Positions 33,132 through 50,095 of a stretch of 64,000 bases of DNA are shown piece by piece. Under the pieces are notes generated by a model. That model did no database searches. It was given only the letters and a program-made list of their open reading frames with translations, and had not been told where the DNA came from. Numbering within the stretch: position 1 is the stretch's first letter; each line of letters starts with the position of its first letter. The position numbers and the translations under genes were made by a program. Location of the stretch: positions 11,253-75,252 of the forward strand of contig CANQNS010000007.1 in the NCBI GenBank assembly GCA_947625285.1. The letters run 5' to 3'. This DNA is from an uncultured Oscillospiraceae bacterium (GTDB lineage Bacteria > Bacillota > Clostridia > Oscillospirales > Oscillospiraceae).

Positions 33132-33167
33132 CCGGCCCTGTCCAGTTGGACAGGGCCGGCATTTTTT
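33132..33167 (+). terminator. Intrinsic terminator after the lipoprotein gene
   Basis: 13-bp stem ccggccctgtcca/tggacagggccgg, followed by caTTTTTT. Confidence 0.8.
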
Positions 33168-35135: not shown

Positions 35136-35264
35136 GGGGGAGCCGTCGTCCACCAGTATGAGCTCAAAGCCCCCAAAGGTCTGGGCCAGGATGCTGTCCA
35201 CGCAGGCGGGCAGATATTCCTCTACCTTGTACACCGGCGTGACGATGGAAAATAGTGGCGTCAT
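34197..35264 (-). CDS. Family 2 glycosyltransferase (copy 2 of a tandem pair)
   Basis: The first ~253 aa are identical to copy 1 and the C-terminal ~100 aa diverge. The ATG at 35264 overlaps the flippase stop (ATGA). The stop at 34197-34199 abuts the copy 1 ATG. Confidence 0.9.
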   Translation of the reverse strand: MTPLFSIVTPVYKVEEYLPACVDSILAQTFGGFELILVDDGSPDGSGALCDGYAAKDARVRVIHQPNRGVTAARQAALDAARGDYVCFVDGDDWVKENWLETIRRCLTENGGADMLVFDFVTSDGSPDQPLLAAPGYYDKARLEKEIYPYMIWDRRRPFFTQLIPGYQWSKVVRRELILAHGLRDCPIALYEDVAALYECLYNAGSFYVCPEKLYVYRLRSGSALRQYDPEEFRQLKLLRDYLSAHLLRQAPDIADQADAFISSKLLRAIANQLIHRDSLRQAARNIGAALDETGLARQICPQALPLRIRLFLALLRHRAYLAAVLVHRTRVWLYYHRPAALFQKRAAAGGTEGR

Positions 35265-36847
35265 GGCTTGCCTCCCTGGTCCTTTTTGCCGCCGGGGAGC
35301 AGGGACCTGGCGGTGCTCGCCAGAAAACGAAACTCCTCCGTCCGGCAAAAGCACACCGCGTAAAAGACGCTGGGCACGGCCACGCACACGCAGCCCCGGA
35401 GGATGAACCCTCCTATGCCGCCCAGGGCGATACGGGCGCAGAGCCCCCAGCAGGCCAGCCCCGCCGCCGCCGTCACCAGCTTATAGACCAGGTTCCGCAG
35501 ATAGTAGCCCCAGGGGGCCGTGTGCAGGACCCGCCGCCAGATCACCCAGGGGTCCACGGTCAGGAAGGTGCCTCCGTGGGCGATGATGGTGCTGACAACG
35601 CACCCGGCGATGCCGATCCGGGGCACCAGCCAGATGGAGAGGGCCAGGTTGAGCACGATGGTGACGATGGGCCGGACCCGGATATAGCGGAACACGCCGG
35701 TGACTTCCCGGAATACCATCAGATACATCCCCTGGCCGGCGATATAAAACTCGATGCCGATCAGCAGGGCCAGGGGCGTGCGAACGGTCACGCCGCCGGC
35801 GGTCCAGCTGGTCACCACGAAGCCCGGCCCGGCCCAGAGGGTGATGAACTCGTCCAGCAGCAGCGCAAGGCCGATGGAGCTGACGCCGAAGAGCCATACC
35901 GTGAAGAAGTTGACCGTCCGAAAGGCCAGCCGGGACCACGCCGGGTTCCCGGCGGTATGCAGGCTGCCCAGGGACGCCTGCATGGCGGAGACCAGCTTAT
36001 ACAGCAGATTGTTGATCTGGTTTTTCACCAGCAGATACTGGGAGTACAGCCCCACGCTCTGCAGGCCCGCCATGATGGACAGGACGATGACGTCGGAGCT
36101 GTTGACTACCGTGCCGCAGACCCGGTGGAGCAGCATCACGGAGCAGTCCTTGAAAAGCTCCTTCACCTCGCCCCGGCTGATATGGCCGTCCACCTTCTCC
36201 CGCAGATAGGGGTGCCGCCGGTCGCAGATACAGGCGTTGAGCAGGTTCTGAGCGACGGTGAAGCCGATCTGCACCAGCAGATAATAGATGAAGCTGTGGG
36301 TCAGCGTCAGGACCAGTATCTGCGCCGCGCTGTTGGCAAGGGCGATGAAATAGCCCGCCACGGTCAGCACATAGGTCTTTTGGGTGGCGTTGATGAAGGC
36401 GTTTTTGTAGGCGAAGAACCAGTAGGAGGCGACGGTGTTGAAAAGGTAGATGAGGAAGATGACCGTGCCGTTCAGCCCCAGCTCGGCCAGCCGGCCGTAG
36501 TCCTTCGCCAGCCGGGGCAGGAACGGGATCAGGCACAGCCCCATGGCCGCGATGACGCAGCCCACCACCAGATAGACCTGCCGGTACAGCTTCATGAGCA
36601 GCTGGATGCGCCGCCGATCGCCCTCCTCGATGGGCTTGTAGAGCTTATAGGCGATGGCGGTGTCGAAGCCCAGATTCGCCAGGTTCAGCACGGTCAGGAT
36701 GTTGGAGAACACCCCCTCCAGCCCCAGGTAATCCGTGCCCAGGGTGCGGATGAAGACCGTGCGGGTGACGAAGCTGAGCGCCATGAGCAGCAGCGAGGAC
36801 CCGATGCCGGTGAGCATATTGTAAAAGGAATTCTGGGTGCGGGTCAT
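35261..36847 (-). CDS. MOP-superfamily (Wzx-like) oligosaccharide/polysaccharide flippase
   Basis: 528 aa with about 12-14 TM segments. The N-terminus MTRTQNSFYNMLTGIGSSLLLMALSFVTRTVFIRTLGTDYLGLEGVFSNIL is typical of Wzx-type flippases. Confidence 0.85.
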   Translation of the reverse strand: MTRTQNSFYNMLTGIGSSLLLMALSFVTRTVFIRTLGTDYLGLEGVFSNILTVLNLANLGFDTAIAYKLYKPIEEGDRRRIQLLMKLYRQVYLVVGCVIAAMGLCLIPFLPRLAKDYGRLAELGLNGTVIFLIYLFNTVASYWFFAYKNAFINATQKTYVLTVAGYFIALANSAAQILVLTLTHSFIYYLLVQIGFTVAQNLLNACICDRRHPYLREKVDGHISRGEVKELFKDCSVMLLHRVCGTVVNSSDVIVLSIMAGLQSVGLYSQYLLVKNQINNLLYKLVSAMQASLGSLHTAGNPAWSRLAFRTVNFFTVWLFGVSSIGLALLLDEFITLWAGPGFVVTSWTAGGVTVRTPLALLIGIEFYIAGQGMYLMVFREVTGVFRYIRVRPIVTIVLNLALSIWLVPRIGIAGCVVSTIIAHGGTFLTVDPWVIWRRVLHTAPWGYYLRNLVYKLVTAAAGLACWGLCARIALGGIGGFILRGCVCVAVPSVFYAVCFCRTEEFRFLASTARSLLPGGKKDQGGKP

Positions 36848-36880: not shown

Positions 36881-37879
36881 TCAGCGGCGGGCCAGGCGTA
36901 CAAGGGCGAAAAAGAGCGTGGGGCTTGTCATGAGGAGCCGGCACAGCAGCCGGGTCTTTCGGTCCAGCTTGCCGGTGGAGCAGGCGGCGGCCCAGTGCTC
37001 CCGCAGCAGGGGGATAAAGTCCGCGCAGGTCCTGCGAAACGGTCCCAAAGACAGATCCGCCGCGTGAAAGGCCGTCACATAGCAGGCCCGGCAGACCTTG
37101 TAGGACCCGGCCGCCAGCACGGCGGGGGGCTCCCCCTCCGCCCGAAAGACCTCCATCATGTCCTTTACGGCGTCGATCAGGTCCAGATGCCGGGGCTCGA
37201 ACGGTTTGTGCTGGGTGCTGTCGGCCCGGATCCAGAAGTGATAGACCGCCTCCGGCGCGCACGCCAGCCGGCCGCAGTCCGCCACCTGCCGCCAGACGGA
37301 AAAGGAGTCCTCAAAAAGCCGGCCCTGGGGGAAGGGGTGCGCCAGCATATTCTCCCGGCGGGTCAGCTTCCCGCAGAGAAAGCCGCTGACGCCGCCGGCG
37401 GCCTCCAGACATACCGCCTCCAACGCCTGGTCCCGGTCCATCACCGGCGGCTCCGGCACGGGATAGAGCCGTTGGGAGACGCTGCCGTCCGCCCGGACTG
37501 TTTCCGCACAGATCCGGGCCACGGCCATGCCGGCTCCGGCCCGTTCCGCCGCATCGTACAGAGCGGCCAGGTAATGGGCGGAAACATAGTCGTCCGCGTC
37601 CACGAAGGCGATGAACGCGGCGTCGGACCCGGCGACGGCCCGGTTGCGGGCGGTGGCCTGGCCGGTGTTCTGCTGGTGGATCACCCGGACCCGGTCCGGG
37701 GCGGCGGCGGCGTACGCGTCGCAGACGGCGCCGCTGCCGTCGGTGGAGCCGTCGTCCACCAGGGTGATCACAAAATCTGAAAAGTCCTGGGCCAGCAGGC
37801 TGTCCACGCACCGTTTCAGATACGTCTCCACATTATATACCGCCACGATCACGTCGATGAGCGGTCTGCCGTCAGCCAT
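36881..37879 (-). CDS. Family 2 glycosyltransferase
   Basis: LIDVIVAVYNVETYLKRCVDSLLAQDFSDFVITLVDDGSTDGSG and FVDADDY. The ATG at 37879 overlaps the upstream gene's end by 8 nt. Confidence 0.88.
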   Translation of the reverse strand: MADGRPLIDVIVAVYNVETYLKRCVDSLLAQDFSDFVITLVDDGSTDGSGAVCDAYAAAAPDRVRVIHQQNTGQATARNRAVAGSDAAFIAFVDADDYVSAHYLAALYDAAERAGAGMAVARICAETVRADGSVSQRLYPVPEPPVMDRDQALEAVCLEAAGGVSGFLCGKLTRRENMLAHPFPQGRLFEDSFSVWRQVADCGRLACAPEAVYHFWIRADSTQHKPFEPRHLDLIDAVKDMMEVFRAEGEPPAVLAAGSYKVCRACYVTAFHAADLSLGPFRRTCADFIPLLREHWAAACSTGKLDRKTRLLCRLLMTSPTLFFALVRLARR

Positions 37880-39125
37880 GCTCGTCCCTCCCCAGCGCGG
37901 CCAGCTCGCCGGCAAAGGCGCCGTAATTGGCCGCCGCGCTGTAATGGGTCTGCCAAAAGGCCCGGGCTCTGGCCCCCAGGGCCCGGCGGTCCGCCGCGCT
38001 CATGGCCGCGACGGTTCGGATGGCCTCCGCCAGCCGCTCCGGCGTCAGCTCCGCCGGCAGCAGCAGGCCCGTCTCCCCGTCCAGCACCAGCTCCCCCGTG
38101 CCGCCCACGTCTGTGGCGGCGGCGGGGATGGAAAAGCTCATGGCCTCCATGACGGACACGGGGATGCCCTCGGAGGAGCTGACGTTCAGGAAGAGATGAA
38201 AGGGCGTGCGGGCGTACTCCGCCATGAGGGCGGCGTTGTCCACATGACCTTTCAGCTCCCAGGAGACATTTTCCGGCAGGGTCCGGCAAAGGGCCTCGAT
38301 CTCCCCCCGGAGGGGGCCGTCCCCGTAATGGGTCCAACTGACGGGCATATCGTCCAGCAGGGCCAGGGCCCGGACCAGCAGATCCACCCGCTTGACGGGG
38401 CTCAGGGTGGAGCAGCTGACAAGGCGCAGAGGCCCGTCCTCCGGCGCGTCGGGCGAGGGCCCGTGGTCCTCCGTGCCCAGCCGGGCCACGGCCATCCGGC
38501 TCTCCCAGGCGGGATAGGCCCGCGCCAGATAGCGCAGCCCCGCCTCCGAGACCAGATATACCTTTCGCACTGCGGCCAGGACCGTGGGCCGCATGGGGAT
38601 GTACCCGTTGGAGCGTCTGCTCTCGTAAAGGTCATAGCCGTGTCCCCGGGCCAGGATCACGCTGTTGGGCAGACGCTTTTGCAGCAGCGCGGCGACATAG
38701 GGCTGGTAGTCGAACCGGTAGCAGTACAGCACCACCCGTTCCCGGCTGCCGGCCAGGCCGGCCTTTTGCAGATACCGGCCGATGACCGCCGCCTCGTGGT
38801 AGGACCGGCTGAGATAAAAAAACAGCCAGGCCAGCCGGGACAGGGAAAACCGCCCCGCCCGGAAGAGCCGGGCCAGCTCCCTGTAAAAGTCCCGGCTCAC
38901 CAACGCCCGGAAGCAGCCGGGGACGCAGGCCGCCAGCGAGAAAGGCACCGGGCAGACGTGAAACCTCTCCCCGGGCAGAGGCCGGACGGCGTCCATATGC
39001 TCCCGGCGCAGCTGCATGGCGCAGACGTGTATCTCGTCAAAGTCCCGGTAATATTTGATCTCTGTCTCCAAAAACGGCTCCCACGGCCCGTAGGGGAAGC
39101 CGTTGGCAAGCAGGATGAGCTTCAT
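37872..39125 (-). CDS. GT-B fold glycosyltransferase (GT4/group 1)
   Basis: C-terminal GT1 motif FLNVSSSEGIPVSVMEAMSFSIPAAATDVGGTGELV..GETGLL. Confidence 0.85.
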   Translation of the reverse strand: MKLILLANGFPYGPWEPFLETEIKYYRDFDEIHVCAMQLRREHMDAVRPLPGERFHVCPVPFSLAACVPGCFRALVSRDFYRELARLFRAGRFSLSRLAWLFFYLSRSYHEAAVIGRYLQKAGLAGSRERVVLYCYRFDYQPYVAALLQKRLPNSVILARGHGYDLYESRRSNGYIPMRPTVLAAVRKVYLVSEAGLRYLARAYPAWESRMAVARLGTEDHGPSPDAPEDGPLRLVSCSTLSPVKRVDLLVRALALLDDMPVSWTHYGDGPLRGEIEALCRTLPENVSWELKGHVDNAALMAEYARTPFHLFLNVSSSEGIPVSVMEAMSFSIPAAATDVGGTGELVLDGETGLLLPAELTPERLAEAIRTVAAMSAADRRALGARARAFWQTHYSAAANYGAFAGELAALGRDEHG

Positions 39126-39147: not shown

Positions 39148-40227
39148 TCAACGCCGTCCGAACACCTCCGTCAAGACCTCGTCGGTCAGCTCCCCAAAGG
39201 TGGGGCCGTCCGTCTCCTGGTTCTGTCCGGGCAGGGCGTTGAATTCGATGAGGACCGGTTCGCCCTCCGGGTCCACCGCGATGTCCCAGCCGATGATCTT
39301 GAAGTGGGGCATGCGGGCGGCGTGGGCGCGGACCGCCTCCAGGGCCTTGTCGTAGCCCGGCGCCACGACGCCGGCGAAGGGCACGCCGGAGGGGGACGCG
39401 TCCACATACTCCCAGGGGCCGTTGCGGTGGGTCATGCCCAGCTCGTCCAGTCGGCCGCCCTCCCGGACCGTGCAGCGCACGCCTCCGTGGCAGGTGTTGT
39501 CCACCTCGCTGTCGATGCCGCCGACGCGCAGCACGGTGGACAGCACATAGACCTGGCCCCGGTGCAGGAAGGTCATGATGCGGAAGGTGTTGAGGCAGTT
39601 GGGGTTGAAGCTTGCCATGACCGGGTGCTGGGGCAGCTTTTCCTGGACGATGAAGTTCCGGCCGTAGCTGCGGAAAAGCTCCCGGATATCGCCGTCCGTC
39701 AGGTCGCCAGAATCGAAAAACCGCAGGCTGTTGCCGCCGCCGGAGCCCACGGAGGTCTTGAACAGGATGCGGCCCCGGTCGTGGCACAGCGCCACCGCCT
39801 GCTCCTCGGTCATGGGCGTGAGATCGTCGTCGTAAAATACGCCGGCGATGTTCTTTACCACTGTGACGGGCCGGCGCATATCGGCAAACAGGAGATTTTG
39901 GATGCACTTGTCCTGCCAGGCCTTTGCCAGAATGGTGTCGCTGTAATGGGGCAGGATGCGGCCGAACCACAGGTCGGAGGGGATATACTTGGGGCTGAAG
40001 GGCTTGTGGCTGTTGGCAAACAGCGTGAACCAGAATTTGGGCGGGGTATGGACCTTGAACTGCTTCCAGTAGGGACGGATCACCGTGCGGTATTCCCGCT
40101 CCACCTGGGGATCGGCGGGCATGGCCTTGGCGCAGGCCCGGTCGCTGCGGTAGTCCTTTTGGGCGTTGACAAGGCTCTCCGTGCGGACGTAAAAGCGGTC
40201 AAAGAGATCTCGAAGCGTTCCGCTCAT
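39148..40227 (-). CDS. TupA-like ATP-grasp family protein (sugar-associated amidoligase candidate)
   Basis: 359 aa. Motifs resemble the ATPgrasp_TupA family as I recall it (FWFTLFANSHKPFSPKYIPSDLW, NDKCIQ-like, KTSVGSGGGNSLRF, FRIMTF, IIGWDIAVDPEGEPVLIEFN). Confidence 0.7.
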   Translation of the reverse strand: MSGTLRDLFDRFYVRTESLVNAQKDYRSDRACAKAMPADPQVEREYRTVIRPYWKQFKVHTPPKFWFTLFANSHKPFSPKYIPSDLWFGRILPHYSDTILAKAWQDKCIQNLLFADMRRPVTVVKNIAGVFYDDDLTPMTEEQAVALCHDRGRILFKTSVGSGGGNSLRFFDSGDLTDGDIRELFRSYGRNFIVQEKLPQHPVMASFNPNCLNTFRIMTFLHRGQVYVLSTVLRVGGIDSEVDNTCHGGVRCTVREGGRLDELGMTHRNGPWEYVDASPSGVPFAGVVAPGYDKALEAVRAHAARMPHFKIIGWDIAVDPEGEPVLIEFNALPGQNQETDGPTFGELTDEVLTEVFGRR

Positions 40228-41174
40228 TTGTCGCTGTCCTCCTTTCCGGGGGCGTTGATGGTCCGGCGGACCTCATACTGGGGCATATTGCTGACGGTCA
40301 TATAGATGCGGCCGATATACTCCCCGCACAGGCCCAGCAGCATCATGATGACGCCGCCGATGCCCAGCTGCAGGGCGATGGAGGTGGTGAAGCCCGCGGC
40401 GATAGAGGGGTTGATGAGCTTGCGGATGACTACCACCGCCGCGGAGAGAAAGCCCACGGCGGCAAAGAGCGTGCCCACGAACACGGCGGCCCGCAGGGGT
40501 ACGGTGGAGAAGTTGGTGAAGCCGGTGATCCAAAGGGCCATCATCTTGCCGAAGGTGTAGTTGGAGTGGCCCGCGAACCGGGACCGATGCTCCATGTCCA
40601 CATTGGCGTAACGCCGGACCACATGGGTCAGATAGCCTCCCATGGAGGGGAAGGGGCTGGTGTATTTTTTCAGAGCCTCCACCGCGATCCGGTCCATGGC
40701 GAAGTAGCTGGAGATGAAGATGCCCCGGGGCTTGGTGCCGTTCAGCTCCAGGATGCGGCTGTTGAGCCAGCTTCCGAACCGCTTGAAGGCGTTGTGGTGC
40801 TTGTGGGGGAACCGGGCGTAGACCAGATCGTATCCCTCCTGGACCTTCTCCACCAGGCGGAAGATCTGGTCCGCCGGGTGCTGGCCGTCGTCGTCCATGA
40901 ACACCAGCACCTCGCCCTCCACAAAGGGAAGCGCGGCCATCTTGGCGGTGGTGGAGCCGAAGTTGCGGGTCAGCTCCACGCCCACGATCTTCGGGTCGCC
41001 GCGGCAGATCTCCGCGATCTTGTCGGAGGTGGCGTCCCCCGGCGAGTCGTTCACCAGTATGATCTGATAATCGTATTCCGGCCGCCCGGCGAACACCTGG
41101 CGCAGCTCGTCCACCACGAAGTCCAGGGTGTCGGCGGAATGGAAACAGGGAATGGCAACGGATACTGTGGTCAT
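40224..41174 (-). CDS. GtrB/ArnC/DPM1-like GT2 polyprenyl-phosphate sugar synthase
   Basis: VSVAIPCFHSADTL, ILVNDSPGD, FMDDDGQHP, and two C-terminal TM helices (AAVFVGTLFAAVGFL, IALQLGIGGVIMMLLGLCGEYIGR). ATGA overlap with the downstream ATP-grasp gene. Confidence 0.85.
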   Translation of the reverse strand: MTTVSVAIPCFHSADTLDFVVDELRQVFAGRPEYDYQIILVNDSPGDATSDKIAEICRGDPKIVGVELTRNFGSTTAKMAALPFVEGEVLVFMDDDGQHPADQIFRLVEKVQEGYDLVYARFPHKHHNAFKRFGSWLNSRILELNGTKPRGIFISSYFAMDRIAVEALKKYTSPFPSMGGYLTHVVRRYANVDMEHRSRFAGHSNYTFGKMMALWITGFTNFSTVPLRAAVFVGTLFAAVGFLSAAVVVIRKLINPSIAAGFTTSIALQLGIGGVIMMLLGLCGEYIGRIYMTVSNMPQYEVRRTINAPGKEDSDK

Positions 41175-41202
41175 ATTCCCACACCTCCTGATCGGCATTG
41201 GA

Positions 41203-42390
41203 TCATTCTATCTCGATAATGAACTGTTTTTTGATCTCCTCGATGCGCCGGAAGCAGGCCTCCGGCGTGGGCCCCTTGACGATGATCTGGCCCAGGCGGT
41301 CCTTGGCGTTGGTGAACTTCTCCACCCGGTCGCCCTCTTTCACGATCACGGACAGGTCGTAAACGCTCTCGTCCCGGACCACGTTGTCGGTGATGCGCTT
41401 GACCGTGCCGGACTTTTCCGACAGCATCATCCGGGAGGCGTTGGCAACATGGCCGTCCTCCCGCCGGGCGAAGATGGCCTCCGGGTCGTCCCCCACGGCC
41501 ATGGCCGCGATCATCTCATAGTAATCAAGGCCGTAGTAGATGCTCACCAGCTCCGGCAGGCAGGTGGCTCCCGCCCGGCCGGTCAGCTCGATCACATAGA
41601 CCTTTCCGTCCTTTTCGATCAGGTCCACGTTCACCGCGCAGTTGTCCAGCCCCAGGGCCCCGATAGCCAGTCGGACCTGCTTTTCGGCGGCGGCCAGCAC
41701 AGCCGCCGGCGCGTCGATGGGCACATAGTGGCCGATGGGAACCGCCGTGCCGCTCATGTAGGTGTTGTCCCCGTGGGGCAGCACGAACAGGACCCTGCCC
41801 CGGTAAACGAAGGCCTGGGCCCCCAGCTCCGTGCCAACGATGTACTCCTCCACGATGCAGTGGTCCTTTTTGGTGGCGGCCATGACCTTTTCCATGTTGG
41901 CGAAGGCGTCCTCCGCCGTGGGGCAGATATAGATGCCCTTGCTGCCCTGCAGGTCCACGGCCTTCAATATCACCGGCAGCTCCAGGTCCCGCAGCGCTTC
42001 CGCCAGGGAGCCGCGATCCGTGACCTTTTTGAACCGGGCCGTGTTCACCCCGGCGGCCATAAAGGCGTTTTTCATGCTCCACTTGTCCGCGGAGCGGATG
42101 GCGGCGGCCTCGCTGAGACCGGGCAGGCCCAGCTTCTCGCAGGCGTAGCCCAGCGCCCGCACGCCGGTGTCCAGGCAGCAGGTGGCGATGCCGTCCACAT
42201 GAGCCCGCTTTGCCGCCTCCAGCACCGCCTCCGGGTCGGAGATGTCGGCATAGGCCGCCTCGTCCGCGGCGGCGAAGCCGGGATAGCTGCCGGGTATGGA
42301 ACAGACCACGGTCCTGTAGCCCAGGCCCCTGGCGGCCCGGATGAGCTGTACCTGGGGCGCGCTGGCGCCCAGGACCATGAGAGTTTTCAT
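41203..42390 (-). CDS. ATP-grasp domain protein (carboxylate-amine ligase type)
   Basis: A pre-ATP-grasp N-domain (MKTLMVLGASAPQVQLIRAAR), KWSMKNAF, PVILKAVDLQGSKGIYI, and IVEEYIVGTE. Confidence 0.8.
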   Translation of the reverse strand: MKTLMVLGASAPQVQLIRAARGLGYRTVVCSIPGSYPGFAAADEAAYADISDPEAVLEAAKRAHVDGIATCCLDTGVRALGYACEKLGLPGLSEAAAIRSADKWSMKNAFMAAGVNTARFKKVTDRGSLAEALRDLELPVILKAVDLQGSKGIYICPTAEDAFANMEKVMAATKKDHCIVEEYIVGTELGAQAFVYRGRVLFVLPHGDNTYMSGTAVPIGHYVPIDAPAAVLAAAEKQVRLAIGALGLDNCAVNVDLIEKDGKVYVIELTGRAGATCLPELVSIYYGLDYYEMIAAMAVGDDPEAIFARREDGHVANASRMMLSEKSGTVKRITDNVVRDESVYDLSVIVKEGDRVEKFTNAKDRLGQIIVKGPTPEACFRRIEEIKKQFIIEIE

Positions 42391-42418
42391 CGTTATACCT
42401 CCTTGTGTCGGCGGCGGG

Positions 42419-43114
42419 TCAGGAAAAGCACTTCATATATTTTGGCGCGTCCGGCCCGGTCATGAAAAGCAGGTCCAGAATGCTCACGTTGTGGGTGAAA
42501 TCCCCGTGCATCTGGGGGTATTCCGGATAGCCGCCGTAGTCCATGTAGGCAAGCTCCACCCCGGCGTCCGCGAACACCTGATCCACGATATAGTCTTTGG
42601 CGGCGGGGCCGGACAGGTAATAGTCCCCGCCGGCGGCCTTCACCAGCGCGGCCAGCCGCTCCGTCTTGCCTTCCGCCAGGACGTAGTCGCTGGACCAGGT
42701 GATCCGGGTGGCGATACCAAGCTGGGCGCATATCTCCGTCAGGAAGAGATGGTTTATCTGGCTGAGCATCTGCATCTGGCCCGCCCGCTCATAAAGGGAG
42801 GCCAGCAGGGGCTCGTACCGCTTGAAATAGGGGGCCTTGGCGTAGCTGAAGCGGATGGCCTTCCAGTGGTCCGCCGCCCACCGGCCGTCGGTCACTTTCG
42901 TTTCGTTGATCTTCTGGTGGAACTTCCCCTTGCTGTCCACGGGGATGGTGAGCCACTGCAGGCCGTTGGCGGTCTTGATCTGGTTGCGGTTGCGCCAGTC
43001 CCGGCGGGTGTACTGCATATCGTCGTAGAGGATGAACTCGTCCACCAGGCCGATGATGTCAAAATAGCCCTTCCAGGGGATGTAATTGGATTGCAGGATA
43101 GCGATCTTTTTCAC
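42419..43114 (-). CDS. WbqC family protein
   Basis: MKKIAILQSNYIPWKGYFDIIGLVDEFILYDDMQYTRRDWRNRNQIK is a characteristic WbqC-like N-terminus. Confidence 0.75.
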   Translation of the reverse strand: MKKIAILQSNYIPWKGYFDIIGLVDEFILYDDMQYTRRDWRNRNQIKTANGLQWLTIPVDSKGKFHQKINETKVTDGRWAADHWKAIRFSYAKAPYFKRYEPLLASLYERAGQMQMLSQINHLFLTEICAQLGIATRITWSSDYVLAEGKTERLAALVKAAGGDYYLSGPAAKDYIVDQVFADAGVELAYMDYGGYPEYPQMHGDFTHNVSILDLLFMTGPDAPKYMKCFS

Positions 43115-43151
43115 AGATACACACTTCCTTTAAGCGTTCTCCATGCGCCGC

Positions 43152-44735
43152 CTAAGCGCGGGCTTGTTTTTTCATGACGAGGAAACTCTCGTCCTCGTAT
43201 ATGACCTTGTAGCCGGCGGCGGCGAGATCCTGCACGGTCCCTTCCCGGGAGGCCGCGTCGTCGTAATTGCCGCCCAGTATCGCGTACCGGGCCTGCTGGC
43301 CGGCGGGATCGGACATGGCGGTATTGATGCCAACGCCGTAAGGAAGACAGTAGTATTGCTCGGTGGTGAAGCCATAGGGGACGACGGTGTTGGCCCAGGG
43401 GTCCGCCGCGTCCTCATCCAGCACGATCGCCTCCGCCAAAGCGTCCCGCTCGGCGGCCCAGGCCGCCTCCTGCCGGTCGGAGGAAAAGCGGCCGGCGGTG
43501 GCAAAAGAGTTCGTGAAGACCGTCAGGAAAAGGACGGCTCCCGCCAGGCAGGCGGCCGCCATGACCTGCCAGGGTCGATTCTGGCCCCGGGGCGCCATGG
43601 CCGCCAGGAGCATCGCGCTGCATATGGCTACGCTGTAATGGCGCATGAACGACCAGGTGTTGGTGTCGTACAACAGCAGCAGCCCGCCCCAGCAGGACGC
43701 CAGGATGTACAGGCACAGCAGATCCAGCGGCCGCGTCCCATCCCACCGGCGGGCCCTGGCGGCGGCGATGACGCGCCAGCACAGGACGATCATGGCCGCG
43801 TACATAAGGGAGCAAAACCAGAACTGGACGGTGATGGATTGATCCCCGCCCATCTTCGACAGCAGCGTCAGCAGATCCACATCCTTCAGCCGCTTCAAAA
43901 AGGCGAAGAAGCCGGACATGATCTTCATCCGCAGGTCGGTGGGCACGAACTTGGCCCCCTGATCGGGCAGATAGGGCGCGCAGGTGAGGTCCCGCGCCAT
44001 CTTCAGCAGAAGCAGCGCGCCGGCGGAGCCGGCCGCCGTCACCGGCAGCCGCCGGCGAAGTGGCTGCTTGCGCAGCATGAGGAACAGATAGACCGGGATA
44101 TACAGCCCCAGCACCAGATCGAAACAGGTGGCGAAGGCCAGAAACAGCGGAGCCGCCGTCACCCGCAGGATAAACTGCCTCCGGGTGGGCTCTGGCACGG
44201 TCAGGATGCGGTACATGATCCCCGCCAGTATGACGGACATGGCGCAGCGGACCGCCTCGCTCATAGCGGTGACGGAATAGCAGATGGTGACGTACTGCAT
44301 CATATTGGTGACCGCCAGCAGCACAAGACCGCGCTTGGAGGGGCGGGCCAGCAGGATGAAGACCAGATTGGCCAGAGCCAGATAGAAAAAGTTGCAGTAT
44401 ACGAACGTGTGCAGGCCCCAGCCGAACAGCCGGGCCAGCAGACCCACAGGAAGCATCGCGTACATCCCCCAGCAGGCGAAAGTCCCCACCGGGGCATGGG
44501 TGCCGATAAAGCCGAAATAGCCCAGGGGCCGGCCATACTCGCTCATGGCGCCATATTGCAGATGCCACCAGATCTCGTCGCTCCACAGCGGCAGAGCCCG
44601 GAACAGATCGAAGCCCTCCAGGGCGGTGAGGATCCAGGCTGTCAGCAGGGGCGACGATACGACCAGCGCGGCCAGTCCCAGCCGGCAGATTTTCTCAGCG
44701 GGGGGGGGTACTGTCAAGGAAGAGCCCTTATTCAT
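43152..44735 (-). CDS. Uncharacterised polytopic membrane protein (possible GT-C glycosyltransferase or polymerase)
   Basis: 527 aa with more than 10 hydrophobic segments. There is an acidic first-loop motif (LWSDEIWW) and a soluble C-terminal ~140 aa. I did not recognise a family. Confidence 0.65.
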   Translation of the reverse strand: MNKGSSLTVPPPAEKICRLGLAALVVSSPLLTAWILTALEGFDLFRALPLWSDEIWWHLQYGAMSEYGRPLGYFGFIGTHAPVGTFACWGMYAMLPVGLLARLFGWGLHTFVYCNFFYLALANLVFILLARPSKRGLVLLAVTNMMQYVTICYSVTAMSEAVRCAMSVILAGIMYRILTVPEPTRRQFILRVTAAPLFLAFATCFDLVLGLYIPVYLFLMLRKQPLRRRLPVTAAGSAGALLLLKMARDLTCAPYLPDQGAKFVPTDLRMKIMSGFFAFLKRLKDVDLLTLLSKMGGDQSITVQFWFCSLMYAAMIVLCWRVIAAARARRWDGTRPLDLLCLYILASCWGGLLLLYDTNTWSFMRHYSVAICSAMLLAAMAPRGQNRPWQVMAAACLAGAVLFLTVFTNSFATAGRFSSDRQEAAWAAERDALAEAIVLDEDAADPWANTVVPYGFTTEQYYCLPYGVGINTAMSDPAGQQARYAILGGNYDDAASREGTVQDLAAAGYKVIYEDESFLVMKKQARA

Positions 44736-44761
44736 AGGAGGTACCTGCTTTCACGCGTTTT

Positions 44762-46102
44762 TCAAAAGTAGTATTCGCCGGTGCGGAGGATGGCGGCCAG
44801 ATAGGCCGCGCCGCAGGCCAGGTGCAGCGCCAGCAGCGCCGCGCCGCCCCAGCGGGCCAGCCGGTACTGGCCGCGCCGGCCCCACAGGGAGGCGTACTGC
44901 CCCGCCGCCGCCGACCACAGCAGCCAGCAGCCCAGATACTGCCCCCAGGTGAAATTCCCGTGCCAGGAGCGTTCCCCTGTCTCGTGCAGGAACATGGCCC
45001 CCAGCAGCCCGGAAAGCGCGCACACCAGCCCCAGCCGGAAGCCGGCGTCCCGCCAGGCCCGCCGGGGCGCGGCGGCCAGCAGAAACAGGGGGAACGCGCA
45101 GGGCAGTGCCAGCATTTTCATGTCGTGGAAGATGGTCCGCAGAAAAGGGCCGAACCCGGTCCAGCCGTCCGCCAGGTAGTAGATGCTGATGCCGGCCCCG
45201 GGGCTGTGCGGCGTCACCGGCGCGGCCTCGGCGGCCAGGGCCGTCACCCCCAGGCTGAAGCCATTGCCGAAAAGGGACCCCACCTGCTGCAGCAGGACCC
45301 ATACGGCCGGCAGGAACGCTGCCGCCATCTTCACGCAGAAGGGCAGCAGCATCCCCCTGGTGCGGATCAGATCGGCCAGCAGAAACAGGAATATGGCCGG
45401 GCCGAATATCTGCAAAAACGAGGGCTTTGCGTAGGCCGACAACACCAGGCACAGCGGGTACAGGACAAGCTGGCTCCGGGTGAACACAGGCGTCTCGAAC
45501 TGGGCCCAGAAGCCGCCGGGAAAGGCGAAAGCGGGACTTTCCCCCTCCTCCGGGCACAGGGGCAGCCGGCGGGGGACGCCCCGGCGGCGGTCATAGATAT
45601 CCGCCGTCATGAACAGCACAGCCGCGGCGAAGGGCCGCACCATGATGCTGGTGGGGTTGTGCCAGGGGTTCACCGCGCCCCGGCCCACATAGTACGGGCC
45701 GCCCGGCAGGGTGAGGCTGCTCACCGTAAAGACGCACAGTACGACGGCGGCCAGCAACCAGCGGGGCGTCTTTTCCGGCGCCCGCCGGTCCAAGCATCCG
45801 TATACGACGAGATACGCCGCGGCATTGGCCCCCGCCGTCGCCAGCGCGGCGGCTCGCCAGATGTTCCTCACGCCGGCCGACGCCGTCAGCCACACGAAGA
45901 TGTGCCACAATATCTCTTTGCCCTGGCGGATGCCTTCCAGGATGATCGGCCAGGACAGCCCCATGGCCCAGGAAAGGTGGTCGATGTAATCACTGTCGCC
46001 GGAGCGGAAGTTGAAAACGACCCGATACGTCAGGCAAAACAGCGCACCCGCGCCCAGCAGGGCCCACGCGGCTTTCGTCAGGCGGGCGGAACGGTCCGTC
46101 AT
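44762..46102 (-). CDS. Uncharacterised polytopic membrane protein (possible GT-C/Wzy-like)
   Basis: 446 aa. The start ATG at 46102 overlaps the wecE-like stop (ATGA). The first loop reads SGDSDYIDH. The upstream 339 codons of the track ORF are an out-of-frame overlap with wecE. Confidence 0.65.
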   Translation of the reverse strand: MTDRSARLTKAAWALLGAGALFCLTYRVVFNFRSGDSDYIDHLSWAMGLSWPIILEGIRQGKEILWHIFVWLTASAGVRNIWRAAALATAGANAAAYLVVYGCLDRRAPEKTPRWLLAAVVLCVFTVSSLTLPGGPYYVGRGAVNPWHNPTSIMVRPFAAAVLFMTADIYDRRRGVPRRLPLCPEEGESPAFAFPGGFWAQFETPVFTRSQLVLYPLCLVLSAYAKPSFLQIFGPAIFLFLLADLIRTRGMLLPFCVKMAAAFLPAVWVLLQQVGSLFGNGFSLGVTALAAEAAPVTPHSPGAGISIYYLADGWTGFGPFLRTIFHDMKMLALPCAFPLFLLAAAPRRAWRDAGFRLGLVCALSGLLGAMFLHETGERSWHGNFTWGQYLGCWLLWSAAAGQYASLWGRRGQYRLARWGGAALLALHLACGAAYLAAILRTGEYYF

Positions 46103-47232
46103 GAGCGGGCCCTCGCGTAGAAGGCCGCCACGGCGTTGGCGGCGGTCTCCACCTCCGCGTCCGTCAGGCCGTAATACATGGGCAGCCGCAGCAGCCGCTG
46201 GCTCTCCCGGGTGGTATATTTGTCCTCCCCGTGGAACCGGCCGAAGCGCAGCCCCGCCGCGGCGGAGTGCAGCGGCACATAGTGGAACACGCTGCCCACC
46301 CCGTGGGCCTTCAGCCAGGCGATCAGCTCCGTGCGCTCGTCCAGGTCTCTGGCCTTGATGTAGAACATATGGGCGTTGTGGACGCAGCCGTCCGGGATAA
46401 CGGGCAGCTCGATCCGTCCCGCCTCCGCCAGCGGCGTCAGCATCTGCCGGTAGAGGTCCCAGCAGTGGAGCCGGGCGGCGTTGATCTGTTCCGCCATCTC
46501 CAGCTGGGCGTAGAGGTAAGCGGCGTTCAGCTCGCTGGGCAGGTAGCTGGAGCCCAGGTCCTCCCAGGTATACTTGTCCACCTGGCCCCGGAGGAACCGG
46601 GCCCGGTTGGTGCCCTTCTCCCGGATGACCTCGGCCCGGGGGTCGTCGGTCCGCAGCAGGATGGCCCCGCCCTCGCCCATGGAGTAATTCTTCGACTCGT
46701 GGAAGCTGTAACAGCCGTAATCCCCGATGGCCCCCAGGGCCTTGCCCTTGTACGAGGCCATGACGCCCTGGGCCGCGTCCTCCACCACCTTCAGGCCGTG
46801 GCGGCGGGCCATGGGCAAAATGGCGTCCATCTCGCAGGCCACCCCGGCGTAGTGCATGACGCAGATGACCTTCGTCTTTGGGGTGATGGCCTCCTCGATG
46901 CGGTTTTCGTCGATGTTCATGGTATCCGGCCGGATGTCCACGAACACCGGCACCGCCCCGGCCAGCACGAAGGCGTTGGCGGTGGAGGAGAAGGTGTACG
47001 AGGGCATGATGACCTCGTCCCCCGGCTCCAGGGCGCACAGCAGCGCGGCCATGTCCAGCGCGTGGGAGCCGCTGGTAGTCAGCAGGGCCCGGGCCGCGCC
47101 GGTGCGCTGGACCAGCCATTCATGGCACTTTTTCGTAAAGGCCCCGTCGCCGCATATCTTGTGGGAGTGGATGGCCTGCAGGACGTACTCGTCCTCCTTG
47201 CCGCAATAGGGTGGCACGTTGAAAGGGATCAT
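46099..47232 (-). CDS. wecE: dTDP-4-amino-4,6-dideoxygalactose transaminase (WecE/DegT family, PLP-dependent)
   Basis: Collinear with E. coli WecE as I recall it (MIPFNVPPY.., EVIMPSYTFSSTANAFVL, VMHYAGVACEMD, SFHESKNY with the PLP lysine, REKGTNRARFLRGQVDKYTW, NAHMFYIK, RLLRLPMYYGL). Confidence 0.88.
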   Translation of the reverse strand: MIPFNVPPYCGKEDEYVLQAIHSHKICGDGAFTKKCHEWLVQRTGAARALLTTSGSHALDMAALLCALEPGDEVIMPSYTFSSTANAFVLAGAVPVFVDIRPDTMNIDENRIEEAITPKTKVICVMHYAGVACEMDAILPMARRHGLKVVEDAAQGVMASYKGKALGAIGDYGCYSFHESKNYSMGEGGAILLRTDDPRAEVIREKGTNRARFLRGQVDKYTWEDLGSSYLPSELNAAYLYAQLEMAEQINAARLHCWDLYRQMLTPLAEAGRIELPVIPDGCVHNAHMFYIKARDLDERTELIAWLKAHGVGSVFHYVPLHSAAAGLRFGRFHGEDKYTTRESQRLLRLPMYYGLTDAEVETAANAVAAFYARARS

Positions 47233-47290: not shown

Positions 47291-50095
47291 TCAAAACCAG
47301 ATGATCCGGCCGTTTCGGATCAGGGACACGGTGGGGGCAATATAGATGAATCCCACCACCACCGCCGCTACGGCCAGGAAAGCCAGCTGCACCAGCCAGT
47401 CCAGGAGCCTGGGAATGGGGCGGGTCCGCCGCCGCAGCAGGGGCGCGGCCGCCACCCAGATGACCAGTAGGGCCAGGCTGGCCCGGCGCAGGACGGTGTT
47501 GATGTCCACAGGGCGCAGCGGCGACAGATAGGGCGCGGCGTCGGCCTCCGGCTGGCTGTCGGCGGGCGGCGGGACATAGGCCCCCTCCGGCGTGGGTCCC
47601 CGGAACAGGTACACCCTGTTCTCCCCGTCCTGCAGGGGCACCGATACCGTGGTCCCCAGAAGCGAGCTGGTGGACACATATTCGCCGTTGACGGTACAGG
47701 TCCACCCGCCGGCTAGGGGCAGGTAAAGATACCGTCCCTCCCCGTCGGCGGTGATGGTGATGGAAAGACCGTTGGAGAAGGTCTCCAGGGTCATGTCCGG
47801 GTCCAGATCGGCGTCGTCGTAAAAGGCGTCCAGGGCCCCTTTGTCCAAGGCCGTCAGAGACACCGCCTGCTCCGTCAGATCCATGGCGGAGGCGAAGGTG
47901 ACCTCTGACCGGCCCGCCGGGAACAGGCCCAGGCAGAGCAGATTGGAGTTGAAGGCGGCGGGATAGACCCGGTTGTCCAGGTCCATATAAGTGGGCACCG
48001 CCACAGCCCGCCCGTTGGCGGTGATGTTCATAGCCATGCCGTCTACGCTCATATACATGAACGCGGGCGCGTCCAGCCGGACGGACAGGCTGTAGGTCCG
48101 CATCCCGTCCCCGGAGACGGTCATTTTGGCCGCCGGGACCGCGGCCAGGGTCCCCTCCGAGCCGGTGAAGGTCCGATACAGCACGTTGAGCCGGCCCGCC
48201 AGATCGGTCTGGTCGAAATAGCTCTCCACGGAGGCGGGGTCGTACATCAGCCCGATCACGCCGGGATAGCGGCACGCGCCGATCTGTATGCCGGCCACCG
48301 TATCGCCGGGGACGTACAGGTCCGGGTCCAGGCCGCTCCCGGACAGGACCCGGTCCACCCCCAGGAGCATATCCGTGAACACCGTGCCGCCGGTGTCCAT
48401 GATGCGGTAGTAGTTGACGGTATAGCCAAGCTGCCGGTAGACCGCCAGCCGGTAGGCGGAGTTGCCGCTCAGGATGCTGGACAGCGCGCTGGTCCCGGCG
48501 ATGGCGGGATATCCCGCGCTGAGACTGGCGTCCAGGTTCTTGCTCCGGGAGAGGGGCGAGATATCCCGGACGGAGAAGTAGTCGTACAGCTGCTCCGACA
48601 CGTCGATGTACGCGGGGTCGTACTCATGGGTGGTGGTATGGCTGTCGTCGGGGGCTATGAGGCCGCAGCCGTTGACGCAGATCTGCAGGACCGCCAGGGC
48701 CGTCACGGTCCAGGCGGCGGTCCGGCGGCTGGCGCTGCGAAGGACCAGATAATACAGGCAGACCGCTCCGATCCCGGCCAGGACCAGCGCGGCGAAGTAA
48801 ACGAAATACTCCCTGCGGCCCATGGCGGTCAAAAAGCACGCGCCGTATTCCCGGAACGCACGCACCACGATGGGCTCCGTCAACACCAGCACCAACGCCG
48901 CCCCGCAGGCCGCGGCGGCGGCGGGCCGCCGGGGAACGGCCGGCAGCGTCTCCGCCAGGTCCCGGCTCTCCAACGCCGCCCCCGCAAAGCCCACGGCGGT
49001 GGCGCAGATCATATACCCATACCGCATGGGGAAGTAGTTATACTGGCCGAAATGCCAGGCGGTGTCGATGTTGGTGAAGATCATGGGCAGGGCGAACACC
49101 CCGGCCATATACAGGAAAAACCGCCGGCCCCGCCGGAACCGTTCCTGCTGCTCCGGGGTGCCGAGCCGTCTTGTGCGCGCCGCCAGCAGCATGGCCGCGA
49201 AGCACAGCCCCAGGCCCAGCAGCATCAGGAAGGTGTGGCGGGTGTTAGTCAGGTCCCAGGTGGTCATGCCGGTCTCGATGCCGGTCTCGATGTTCTGCTG
49301 GAACCGGGCCGAGCCGCTGATGGAGGCGGCGGTGACCTGCCAGTAGGTGAGGGTGGTGCCATAGGCAAAGGCGGTGCAGAGCCCCAGCGACAGCAGCCGC
49401 CCGCCCCGCTCCCGCCGGGGCAGGACCAGATAGCACCAGCCCAGAGAATACAGCACGATGAACGCCGTCACCATGTAGGTGTAGTACACGCTCCGATAGA
49501 GGAAGTACATATAGGCCAGCGCGTAAAGGCCCGGCTTGCCCTCTCGCAGCAGCCGGTCCAGACCCAGCAGCATCAGCGGGAACATCGCCACCACGCCCAG
49601 CCACGTGAAGTTGGAGTAATATTGCAGGGTGAACCCGCAGAAGGTGTACAGCAGGGCCAGCGTCGTCCGATAGGGCACGCTCAGCCCGGGGAAACGGACG
49701 CTGACGGCCCCGGCGGCGATCAGCGCGATGATCACCAGATGCGCCGCCAGATACAGGCTCAGCCCCTCCAGCACATGGGACCGATCCACCAGGAAGAACA
49801 CCCAGTTATAGGGGTAGCGCAGGTCCACCGCAGAGTAGTTATAGCTCTCGCCCAAGCCGGAGAACCAGTCCAGATCCTCCGCCACCAGCCCGTGAAAGGT
49901 GTCCCACATCCTGTAATAACCGGGCGTGTAAAACTGTGCCGCGTCCATGTAGGCCACATTGTCGGTCCCGAAAGGCCATATGCCCCGCAGGGCATATACC
50001 ACCGCCAGGATCGCCGCCGTGAGCCCCGCGGAGAGAAGGCACGTTACCAGCCCGGTCCATATCTGTTTTTTCCAACTGGGGGACGATAAGCTCAT
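47291..50095 (-). CDS. YfhO family membrane protein (GT-C-type glycosyltransferase), second copy
   Basis: 934 aa. The N-terminus RGIWPFGTDNVAYMDAAQFYTPGYYRMW is YfhO-like. The protein is polytopic with a large extracytoplasmic C-terminal domain and a terminal TM segment. Confidence 0.85.
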   Translation of the reverse strand: MSLSSPSWKKQIWTGLVTCLLSAGLTAAILAVVYALRGIWPFGTDNVAYMDAAQFYTPGYYRMWDTFHGLVAEDLDWFSGLGESYNYSAVDLRYPYNWVFFLVDRSHVLEGLSLYLAAHLVIIALIAAGAVSVRFPGLSVPYRTTLALLYTFCGFTLQYYSNFTWLGVVAMFPLMLLGLDRLLREGKPGLYALAYMYFLYRSVYYTYMVTAFIVLYSLGWCYLVLPRRERGGRLLSLGLCTAFAYGTTLTYWQVTAASISGSARFQQNIETGIETGMTTWDLTNTRHTFLMLLGLGLCFAAMLLAARTRRLGTPEQQERFRRGRRFFLYMAGVFALPMIFTNIDTAWHFGQYNYFPMRYGYMICATAVGFAGAALESRDLAETLPAVPRRPAAAAACGAALVLVLTEPIVVRAFREYGACFLTAMGRREYFVYFAALVLAGIGAVCLYYLVLRSASRRTAAWTVTALAVLQICVNGCGLIAPDDSHTTTHEYDPAYIDVSEQLYDYFSVRDISPLSRSKNLDASLSAGYPAIAGTSALSSILSGNSAYRLAVYRQLGYTVNYYRIMDTGGTVFTDMLLGVDRVLSGSGLDPDLYVPGDTVAGIQIGACRYPGVIGLMYDPASVESYFDQTDLAGRLNVLYRTFTGSEGTLAAVPAAKMTVSGDGMRTYSLSVRLDAPAFMYMSVDGMAMNITANGRAVAVPTYMDLDNRVYPAAFNSNLLCLGLFPAGRSEVTFASAMDLTEQAVSLTALDKGALDAFYDDADLDPDMTLETFSNGLSITITADGEGRYLYLPLAGGWTCTVNGEYVSTSSLLGTTVSVPLQDGENRVYLFRGPTPEGAYVPPPADSQPEADAAPYLSPLRPVDINTVLRRASLALLVIWVAAAPLLRRRTRPIPRLLDWLVQLAFLAVAAVVVGFIYIAPTVSLIRNGRIIWF

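Follow-up and report, generated by a model that had tools for sequence, protein, structure and literature searches.

A WecE, WbqC, ATP-grasp and ArnC-like glycosyltransferase gene cluster in an uncultured Oscillospiraceae bacterium: a candidate Arn-like pathway for an aminoacylated 4-amino-6-deoxy sugar

The DNA analysed here (hereafter the window) is a 64,000-nucleotide stretch from an uncultured Oscillospiraceae bacterium (GenBank assembly GCA_947625285.1, contig CANQNS010000007.1, positions 11,253 to 75,252), and the subject of this study is a gene cluster at 39148-47232 that encodes a WecE-type transaminase, two ATP-grasp ligases, a WbqC protein and an ArnC-like family 2 glycosyltransferase (GT2). 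A first-pass annotation had read these genes as a pathway for an aminoacylated 4-amino-6-deoxyhexose carried on undecaprenyl phosphate, analogous to the Gram-negative Arn pathway. Genes were called by frame analysis of third-position G+C (GC3) together with translation, and families were assigned by Pfam and NCBIfam scans; all of the named genes are present and co-directional on the minus strand. The window has a G+C content of ~65% and represents a Firmicute chromosome because it carries hrcA-grpE-dnaK-dnaJ, rpoD, dnaG, dnaE, whiA, rapZ, murB, and hprK. The cluster is part of one minus-strand operon of ~17 kb, running from 50095 down to 33174 with intergenic gaps of 4-58 bp or 4-bp overlaps. 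Its genes are intact, with coding-type GC3 values of 0.83-0.91 and overlapping start and stop codons between neighbours. Rfam and tRNA scans covering the entire window gave no match.

The first operon gene encodes YfhO-2, a membrane glycosyltransferase of the GT-C fold (47291-50095; PF09586, E 5.7e-46). It is followed by the WecE-type dTDP-4-keto-6-deoxyglucose 4-aminotransferase (46099-47232; NF008687 and TIGR02379), membrane protein A of 446 residues with ~8 or more transmembrane helices (44762-46102; no family match), membrane protein B of 527 residues (43152-44735), WbqC (42419-43114; PF08889, E 2e-77), an L-amino-acid-ligase-like (LAL-type) ATP-grasp carboxylate-amine ligase (41203-42390; LAL_C2, GARS_A, and ATP-grasp_4), a polyprenyl-phosphate GT2 of the ArnC/GtrB/CsbB type with C-terminal transmembrane helices (40224-41198), and a 359-residue ligase of the ATPgrasp_ST ("sugar-transfer associated") family (39148-40227; PF14397). 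The closest relatives of the cluster genes are found in assembly GCA_947628805.1 and in an uncultured Oscillospiraceae metagenome-assembled genome. Six loci occupy the same position (L005, L007, L087, L089, L094, and L097): PfkB and two chromate-transporter genes border it on one flank, glycosyltransferase genes on the other.

WecE scored 594.6 bits against NF008687, the dTDP-4-amino-4,6-dideoxygalactose transaminase equivalog (cut-off 375), and 586.9 bits against TIGR02379 (cut-off 434.85). It aligned nearly without gaps with E. coli WecE (4PIW/4ZAH; 526 bits, residues 1-364, ~65% identical), and the lysine motif SFHExKNY is conserved, with FHESKNY aligning to FHETKNY of the E. coli enzyme; the next-best solved family was perosamine synthase, at 166 bits. 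The predicted product is a dTDP-4-amino-4,6-dideoxyhexose, the stereochemistry of which we infer to be that of 4-amino-4,6-dideoxygalactose (Fuc4N) or possibly 4-amino-4,6-dideoxyglucose (Qui4N). An rmlB-type dTDP-glucose 4,6-dehydratase gene lies between YfhO and WecE in L087 and L007 (491 and 477 bits, equivalog cut-off 365), and in L097 the YfhO-WecE slot holds a dehydratase-family gene by Pfam assignment only. The first-pass annotation had stated that no N-acetyl- or formyltransferase is present to cap the amine, and indeed the scans found none among the cluster genes at 29.9-50.1 kb.

The alignment of the GT2 with GtrB and three ArnC structures spanned the full length and took in the transmembrane region (9HWJ of ArnC, E 1.4e-34, residues 9-321 versus query 11-321; 5EKP of GtrB, E 2.9e-34, residues 27-326 versus query 11-310); the transmembrane segments of the GT2 are located at residues 230-292. 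The NCBIfam scores for ArnC (134.4 bits, cut-off 529) and PgfS (132 bits) were both below cut-off, and an identity as a true ArnC orthologue, that is, the transferase of 4-deoxy-4-formamido-L-arabinose to undecaprenyl phosphate, was rejected on the former score. Judged by these alignments, the protein is a polyprenyl-phosphate GT2 that is an orthologue of neither ArnC nor PgfS.

YfhO-2 scored 157.7 bits against PF09586 (cut-off 28.5) and weakly matched PgfM1 in NCBIfam, and a YfhO gene adjoins (RmlB)-WecE in 6/6 syntenic loci; its family and position make it a candidate for the enzyme that would move a lipid-linked sugar onto a wall acceptor. A GT-C partner had been placed inside the 39148-47232 interval by the first-pass annotation, but the clear GT-C enzyme, YfhO-2, lies just outside it, and membrane protein B, within it, is weakly GT-C-like by fold. 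Protein B belongs to a rare family: a search of 5.8 billion proteins gave only 16 homologues at E<=1e-5. Its AlphaFold 2 model (predicted local distance difference test score, pLDDT, of 81) has a C-terminal external alpha/beta domain, and the only Foldseek matches with a probability of >=0.57 were 9n9j_I (1.00), a 701-residue translocon-complex chain that we take to be STT3, Pmt4 (0.95 and 0.57), and Pmt1/2 (0.75), all with low template-modelling (TM) scores of 0.26-0.42. The residues W51-D53-E54-W56-W57 (W-x-D-E-x-W-W) are nearly invariant after the first transmembrane helix, and the catalytic acidic residues of GT-C enzymes are located after that helix. The model and the motif suggest that protein B is probably a new GT-C-like glycosyltransferase.

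The family of membrane protein A comprises 754 representative clusters at E<=1e-3, has an invariant aspartate (D38) in the first loop and gave a Pfam match in 0/40 members. Genes for A and B stand as a pair in L087, L089, and L004; an Eggerthellaceae WbqC locus also holds both. A relationship between A and B was ruled out by hhalign, and jackhmmer linked neither of them to the large membrane proteins that precede WbqC in Gram-negative operons. A third membrane protein, of 528 residues with 12 hydrophobic segments (the 12-TM protein; 35261-36847, minus strand), is a candidate Wzx-like flippase. It is retained in L005, L089, and L094 at 57-84% identity and gave no match in a PDB sequence search; none of A, B, and the 12-TM protein matched Pfam at E<=5. 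According to a review, a flippase of the Wzx type can take the place of a GtrA-type one (PMC8035078). In the window, the flippase candidates are the 12-TM protein and protein A, and A could instead be an extra transferase.

The LAL-type ligase scored 51.2 bits against LAL_C2 (cut-off 29.4), 46.9 bits against GARS_A, and 38 bits against ATP-grasp_4. The best solved structure was 4DIM (E 2.6e-118, 398 bits), deposited as a phosphoribosylglycinamide synthetase, and BacD was matched at E 2.5e-13. An assignment as PurD, the glycinamide ribonucleotide synthetase, was rejected (TIGR00877, 52 bits, cut-off 288), and the ATP-grasp clades of the window were found to occur in glycan loci and not with known non-glycan ligases. 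The second ligase, which scored 108 bits against PF14397 (cut-off 31.4), had been labelled TupA-like in the first-pass annotation; that label has to be dropped, as Pfam places the protein in ATPgrasp_ST and gave no match to the TupA family even at E<=5. A teichuronopeptide (TupA) system was rejected because there is neither a TupA-family match nor any uronic-acid gene. A PDB sequence search with the ATPgrasp_ST ligase gave no meaningful match. Its homologues are always accompanied by DegT-type aminotransferases, both in YfhO loci and in Wzy loci, and we regard it as a candidate further amide ligase. In two Wzx/Wzy-type loci (L095 and L096), pairs of ATPgrasp_ST genes occur with a PglF-like dehydratase, DegT, a PglC-like Bac_transf protein, an octopine-dehydrogenase-like gene, and a PALP enzyme, together with a GNAT protein and a PylC-like ATP-grasp, which are fused in L095 and separate genes in L096. 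This gene set suggests an amino-acid or opine-type decoration of a bacillosamine-like sugar.

Comparison of the six syntenic loci showed which parts of the cluster vary. In L005, the genes are kept at 69-94% identity, and an unrelated 754-residue membrane protein stands in for A and B; it has a weak C-terminal match to a choline-binding repeat (E 0.0058), and Pfam gave nothing useful for it at E<=5. L089 has orthologues of A, B, LAL, GT2, and GT4 at 58-88% identity, lacks ATPgrasp_ST, and carries a 376-residue Ddl/PylC-like ATP-grasp exactly in the WbqC position. The same Ddl-like ligase is found in L094 and L097 together with LAL, a hexapeptide acyltransferase, GT2, and two ATPgrasp_ST genes; L094 has membrane protein A only, and L097 has neither A nor B. 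Because L097 keeps the set without extra membrane proteins, YfhO-RmlB-WecE-ligases-GT2 appears to be a self-sufficient module. The WbqC slot is occupied by the Ddl/PylC-like ATP-grasp in both L089 and L094, amid flanking genes that are 58-88% identical to those of the window, and from gene order the ligase positions behave like exchangeable slots, a pattern that would be expected if each enzyme added one acyl or aminoacyl unit. A teichoic-acid-type polymer as the acceptor is hinted at by LicD in L094 and L097 and by a TagF-like gene also near the L094 cluster.

Between WecE and the first ligase gene lies a hypervariable membrane-protein cassette (43152-46102 in the window, 7706-9970 in L005, 4603-5967 in L094, and none in L097). 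A recombination junction lies directly after the first seven codons (MTDRSAR), the only stretch common to the window and L005 cassettes.

Downstream of the ATPgrasp_ST gene, and likewise on the minus strand, are genes for a GT4 glycosyltransferase, assigned to the backbone-building part of the operon (37872-39125; PF00534, E 8e-20), and a soluble-type GT2 (36881-37915; PF00535, E 3e-30), followed by the 12-TM protein and a tandem GT2 pair (34197-35264 and 33174-34196; PF00535, E 6e-34). Within the pair, a 300-nt block is repeated directly, 1068 nt apart, with 98% identity, and the proteins are identical over ~255 residues and diverge at their C-termini, as after a recent duplication with changed acceptor specificity or as an assembly effect. 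A GC-rich hairpin with a T-run (33132-33159; 12-bp stem, 10 GC pairs), located between the end of the operon and a convergent lipoprotein gene, is the likely operon terminator. A second GT-C glycosyltransferase gene, YfhO-1, flanks the locus and has a promoter-like site of its own (29915-32482, minus strand; PF09586, 508.8 bits, E 4.4e-152, full length).

WbqC matched PF08889 over profile positions 1-217/218 with 260.2 bits (cut-off 21.3). Across gut Firmicutes and Eggerthellaceae the protein is 67-94% identical, and homologues from Proteobacteria, Bacteroidota, Cyanobacteria, Chloroflexi, Acidobacteria, and others retain 55-65% identity. In the searchable literature, WbqC/PF08889 received passing mentions only, and no functional description was found. 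The AlphaFold 2 model of WbqC (pLDDT 93.3) had a sole high-probability match to the PDB in Foldseek, BshC (4WBD; probability 1.00, E 1.7e-3, TM score 0.48 over 180 columns), which in bacillithiol synthesis couples cysteine to the amino group of glucosaminyl-malate (GlcN-malate). Further weak matches included cytidylyltransferases, the fold being a generic Rossmann-like one.

Distant WbqC homologues also lie beside aminosugar and aminoacylation genes. On plasmid pBWB401 of Bacillus mycoides KBAB4 (L099), a DegT aminotransferase gene lies upstream of WbqC, which is flanked by genes for an aminoacyl-tRNA-dependent transferase of the FemA/FemB family and a PIG-L deacetylase. The whole plasmid operon (3446-10356 of L099) consists of a sugar dehydrogenase, DegT, an epimerase/dehydratase, a class V aminotransferase, the FemA/FemB-family transferase, WbqC, and the PIG-L deacetylase; as a culturable Bacillus, this host would make WbqC function tractable. 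In Streptomyces and Bernardetia, the distant WbqC gene overlaps a DegT gene. Streptomyces operons combine ProRSx, GT4, WbqC, and LmbE with a dedicated tRNA (PMC10404621). By analogy, this set mirrors the logic of BshA/BshB/BshC with an amino-acid-activating enzyme added.

The BshC-like fold, the DegT, FemAB, PIG-L, and ProRSx contexts and the slot swap with an ATP-grasp ligase together lead to the proposal that WbqC is an N-aminoacylating enzyme. We consider N-aminoacylation of the sugar amine the best reading of WbqC, with roughly even chances of being correct, and it is probably an acylating enzyme rather than a bystander. Amide-linking to the sugar 4-amine, which we infer for the cluster as a whole, is strengthened by the modular ligase slots, by the capping acetyltransferase present in some variants and by the likeness of the WbqC fold to BshC.

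The name WbqC presumably derives from the E. coli O121/S. dysenteriae 7 cluster, a link for which we rely on the Pfam description; when 5,426 E. coli genomes were queried by blastn for the O121 wbqC locus with WbqC genes of Enterobacteriaceae and Francisellaceae, no match was obtained. We take the N-acetylglycine of O121 to sit on Qui4N. Amide-linked N-acetylglycine is carried by E. coli O121 (PMC7685785).

To place the cluster in a wider context, 80 WbqC loci on contigs from one genome per species were scanned with the window proteins and their neighbour genes were clustered; 49 of these loci had full flanks. A WecE-type transaminase (>=350 bits) lay within 10 kb of WbqC in 48 of the 80 loci and in 32 of the 49 with full flanks. 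A GT2 related to that of the window was found within the same distance in 54 of the 80, usually as the next gene, and the transaminase, the GT2 or both were near WbqC in 47/49 full-flank loci. The C-terminal transmembrane pair typical of polyprenyl-phosphate GT2s was present in 45/49 WbqC-neighbour GT2s. Tight coupling of WbqC with the GT2 would be understandable if acylation creates the GT2 substrate and pulls the reversible transamination forward, by analogy with ArnA. Gene order presents the WecE-WbqC-GT2 core as a cross-phylum module that is annotated only generically. Together with the syntenic order YfhO-(RmlB)-WecE-ligases-GT2 in the six related loci, these counts confirm the co-conservation of the genes, and at the level of sequence and gene order the pathway proposed in the first-pass annotation is supported.

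In Gram-negative bacteria, the typical operon order is a 520-700-residue polytopic protein without a Pfam match, WbqC, GT2, a methyltransferase, a NeuD/PglB/VioB-type acetyltransferase, a 324-residue protein, an EamA/GtrA small flippase, sometimes a second methyltransferase, and WecE. This operon was seen in Gram-negative and cyanobacterial loci (including L044, L064, L074, L078, and L082), often with a PhyH dioxygenase; the 324-residue protein has a weak GH130-like match. In the one RefSeq example checked, from Peteryoungia, the Prokaryotic Genome Annotation Pipeline (PGAP) names every operon gene generically. By analogy, the Gram-negative WbqC operon would in effect be an Arn-like pathway. 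In Firmicutes and Coriobacteriia, an LAL ligase takes the place of the methyltransferase and acetyltransferase set, with LAL orthologues within 10 kb of WbqC in 13/80 loci and adjacent to it in most.

These observations led us to a model in which the cluster is a variant of transmembrane glycosylation systems, with a lipid-carrier GT2, a flippase, and a GT-C enzyme delivering an aminoacylated or peptidyl 4-amino-6-deoxy sugar, probably Fuc4N or Qui4N, to the wall; we give this model slightly better than an even chance. RmlA and RmlB, which would be encoded elsewhere in the source genome, would supply dTDP-4-keto-6-deoxyglucose, and WecE would aminate it at C4 to yield the dTDP-4-amino-4,6-dideoxyhexose. 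WbqC would then attach the first amino acid to the free amine and thereby drive the transamination forward, as N-formylation does in the Arn pathway, and the LAL-type ATP-grasp and ATPgrasp_ST would add further residues. The modified sugar would be loaded onto undecaprenyl phosphate by the ArnC/GtrB-type GT2, whose enzyme class is clear and whose donor is presumed. The lipid-linked sugar would be flipped by the candidate 12-TM protein or membrane protein A and transferred by YfhO-2, protein B or both to a wall glycopolymer, which may be built by the downstream GT4 and GT2s or made elsewhere. The outcome would be a cell-envelope decoration that bears an amine or peptide and varies between strains. 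For a route from WecE to a lipid carrier, for YfhO together with an aminotransferase and ATP-grasp and for viosamine together with undecaprenyl phosphate, nothing was found in the searchable literature.

Several observations weigh against this model. Every polyprenyl-phosphate GT2 characterised so far has, to our knowledge, a UDP- or GDP-sugar as its donor, and a dTDP donor would be new. The window contains no rmlA, no rmlB, and no recognisable small flippase of the GtrA/EamA type, and in some Lachnospiraceae the locus is limited to WbqC, LAL, GT2, and an EamA pair and lacks WecE up to a distance of 10 kb. The likeness of WbqC to BshC is structural only (E and TM score as given above), since sequence and alignment-profile searches of PDB sequences with WbqC gave no match. 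The acetyltransferase of the Gram-negative WbqC operons (160.4 bits against the NeuD/PglB/VioB-type cut-off of 160.8) could cap the 4-amine itself, which would leave another role for WbqC; alternatively, it could acetylate the added amino acid. Finally, five other glycosyltransferases of the operon could use the WecE product directly.

The last point opens the way to an operon that holds two unrelated pathways. The WecE sugar, acylated or not, would enter a cytoplasmic repeat unit through a Leloir GT2 or GT4, as Fuc4NAc does in enterobacterial common antigen (ECA), and the ArnC-like GT2 and YfhO would separately add a UDP-derived hexose or N-acetylhexosamine. The GT4, the four further GT2s, and the 12-TM flippase-like protein of the operon would fit such a division, ATPgrasp_ST is also found in classical Wzx/Wzy loci, and the Gram-positive lipid-carrier systems reviewed in PMC8035078 use UDP-Glc, UDP-Gal, and UDP-GlcNAc. 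On the other hand, the cluster contains no UDP-sugar-modifying enzyme, and the minimal locus L097 keeps YfhO-RmlB-WecE-ligases-GT2 contiguous with no other partner. It would also be hard to explain, if the two were unrelated, why WbqC is across phyla usually followed by a transmembrane-anchored GT2, with WecE and small flippases. We consider a two-pathway operon unlikely. A chance juxtaposition or decayed remnant without concerted function might be suspected from the variation of the WecE-WbqC cassette between relatives and from the tandem GT2 duplication. It is contradicted by synteny, in that the order is kept in six related loci and the core in dozens of species, as well as by the intact genes, their GC3, and their overlapping start and stop codons, and we regard it as extremely improbable.

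An Arn-like route might also operate without aminoacylation of the 4-amine. WbqC would then be an accessory of the GT2, an isomerase or a nucleotide-handling partner, and the ATP-grasps would amidate a carboxylate in the manner of TupA/Cj1438 or build a separate peptide, leaving the amine free to provide positive charge. The generic Rossmann-like fold of WbqC, with its weak cytidylyltransferase matches, would suit such roles; WbqC lies more tightly beside GT2 than beside the ligases, the Gram-negative operons have their own VioB-like acetyltransferase, and we know of no biochemical characterisation of ATPgrasp_ST or of this LAL clade. Yet no uronic-acid or carboxylate-sugar pathway is present, so that the 4-amine is the only new reactive handle made by the cluster, and WbqC alternates with an amide-ligase ATP-grasp in one slot. 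Moreover, WbqC occurs with FemAB, with ProRSx and a tRNA, and with LAL in three unrelated lineages, and its structural match, BshC, itself adds an amino acid to an aminosugar. A route of this kind seems to us rather improbable, and we retain the delivery of an aminoacylated or peptidyl sugar as the preferred model.

Beyond the window, a broader proposal can be made only tentatively, as we judge it somewhat more likely to be wrong than right. WbqC would be the founder of a widespread BshC-like family that couples an amino acid, from ATP activation or aminoacyl-tRNA, to a sugar amine made by DegT/WecE enzymes, and its core would be an unrecognised Arn-like pathway. That module might comprise WecE, WbqC, the transmembrane-anchored GT2, a small flippase, and an unannotated polytopic transferase, and it may extend over Firmicutes, Actinobacteria, Proteobacteria, Bacteroidota, Cyanobacteria, Chloroflexi, and others. 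The version in gut Oscillospiraceae could then be an ATP-grasp-extended, non-ribosomal "glycopeptide" assembly line, delivered by YfhO and at least one new GT-C family.

The Arn (Pmr) pathway consists of ArnB, ArnA, ArnC, ArnD, ArnE/F, and ArnT. The proposed pathway resembles it in joining a DegT-family 4-aminotransferase to an N-acylation of the resulting amine that precedes loading onto the lipid, in the transmembrane-anchored GT2, which in Arn makes the undecaprenyl-phosphate aminosugar, in the small EamA/GtrA flippases of related WbqC operons, which are similar to ArnE/F, and in a GT-C enzyme for transfer outside the membrane. It differs in that the proposed sugar is a dTDP-derived 4-amino-4,6-dideoxyhexose rather than the UDP-4-amino-4-deoxy-L-arabinose (UDP-Ara4N) of Arn, and ArnA, the formyl group, and ArnD are missing from the window, where WbqC and the ATP-grasps would be the acylating enzymes, presumably with amino acids. 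Furthermore, the GT-C enzyme is YfhO or a new family instead of ArnT, and in a Gram-positive bacterium the acceptor cannot be lipid A. With the ECA dTDP-Fuc4NAc branch (RmlA/RmlB/WecE/WecD/WecF), the window shares an equivalog-level WecE and, in relatives, an in-cluster RmlB, but it has neither the WecD acetyltransferase nor WecF, and the destination of the sugar seems to be a polyprenyl-monophosphate carrier instead of a pyrophosphate-linked repeat unit.

Three-component glycosylation through a lipid carrier is in itself nothing new for Gram-positives. The transmembrane glycosylation systems described there are CsbB/GtcA/YfhO, GtlA/GtlB, GacI-L, CsdAB-EF, and PgfS/PgfM1/PgfM2 of S. mutans (PMC5836110, PMC8035078), and the window cluster has in common with them a transmembrane-anchored GT-A GT2, a flippase, here a candidate, and a YfhO-type GT-C enzyme. 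Those systems take Glc, Gal or GlcNAc straight from UDP-sugars, whereas the window module would have its own aminosugar pathway and carries up to four amide ligases; a dTDP donor, an aminotransferase or a ligase is not mentioned in the review PMC8035078.

The amino acid proposed to be placed on an aminosugar amine recalls bacillithiol and mycothiol synthesis (BshA/BshB/BshC and MshA/MshB/MshC), and distant WbqC homologues co-occur with GT4 and LmbE/PIG-L genes, as BshC does. WbqC, with 231 residues, nevertheless differs from BshC (540 residues) in size and has no detectable sequence similarity to it; its proposed substrate is a nucleotide- or lipid-linked 4-amino-6-deoxyhexose rather than GlcN-malate, and the product would be an envelope glycan rather than a thiol cofactor. 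The O121 and S. dysenteriae 7 O antigens presumably share the pairing of an aminotransferase with WbqC, but in O121-type O antigens the sugars enter Wzx/Wzy repeat units, with no ATP-grasp trio and no YfhO. ATP-grasp ligases embedded in glycan loci are also known as TupA/Cj1438-type amidoligases of capsules and teichuronopeptide; the characterised ones activate a sugar carboxylate, and beside the ATPgrasp_ST ligase of the window no uronic-acid pathway is encoded.

Two other regions of the window were noted. A low-GC island between hflX and dnaE (11085-13269, minus strand; GC 0.51-0.56 versus 0.65 for the window) encodes a 512-residue protein in which an NPPW motif and a weak MmeI methyltransferase match (24 bits, cut-off 27) were seen, together with a 218-residue open reading frame without a family match, and is probably an acquired restriction-modification pair. 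Adjoining YfhO-1, genes at 27158-29854 (plus strand) encode a DUF4179 protein and a 421-residue protein with a weak sortase domain, and may represent surface-protein anchoring beside the glycosylation locus.

New in the proposed system would be the dedicated dTDP-aminosugar branch, the exchangeable slots that hold as many as four amide ligases, the probable role of WbqC as an acylating enzyme of BshC type, judged by its modelled fold, and, also from modelling, at least one GT-C-like family. The GT2 might be the first polyprenyl-phosphate GT2 to depend on a dTDP-sugar. For WbqC, a highly conserved family with only generic annotation so far, the analysis provides a testable function, and its tie to BshC touches the question of BshC ligase chemistry, of which we know no in vitro reconstitution. 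In the Arn pathway and in D-alanylation, the envelope charge is changed for resistance to cationic peptides. Amine- or peptide-bearing sugars on wall polymers would likewise alter surface charge and antigenicity in abundant uncultured gut Clostridia, and the hypervariable cassette and swappable ligases suggest selection by phage or host immunity.

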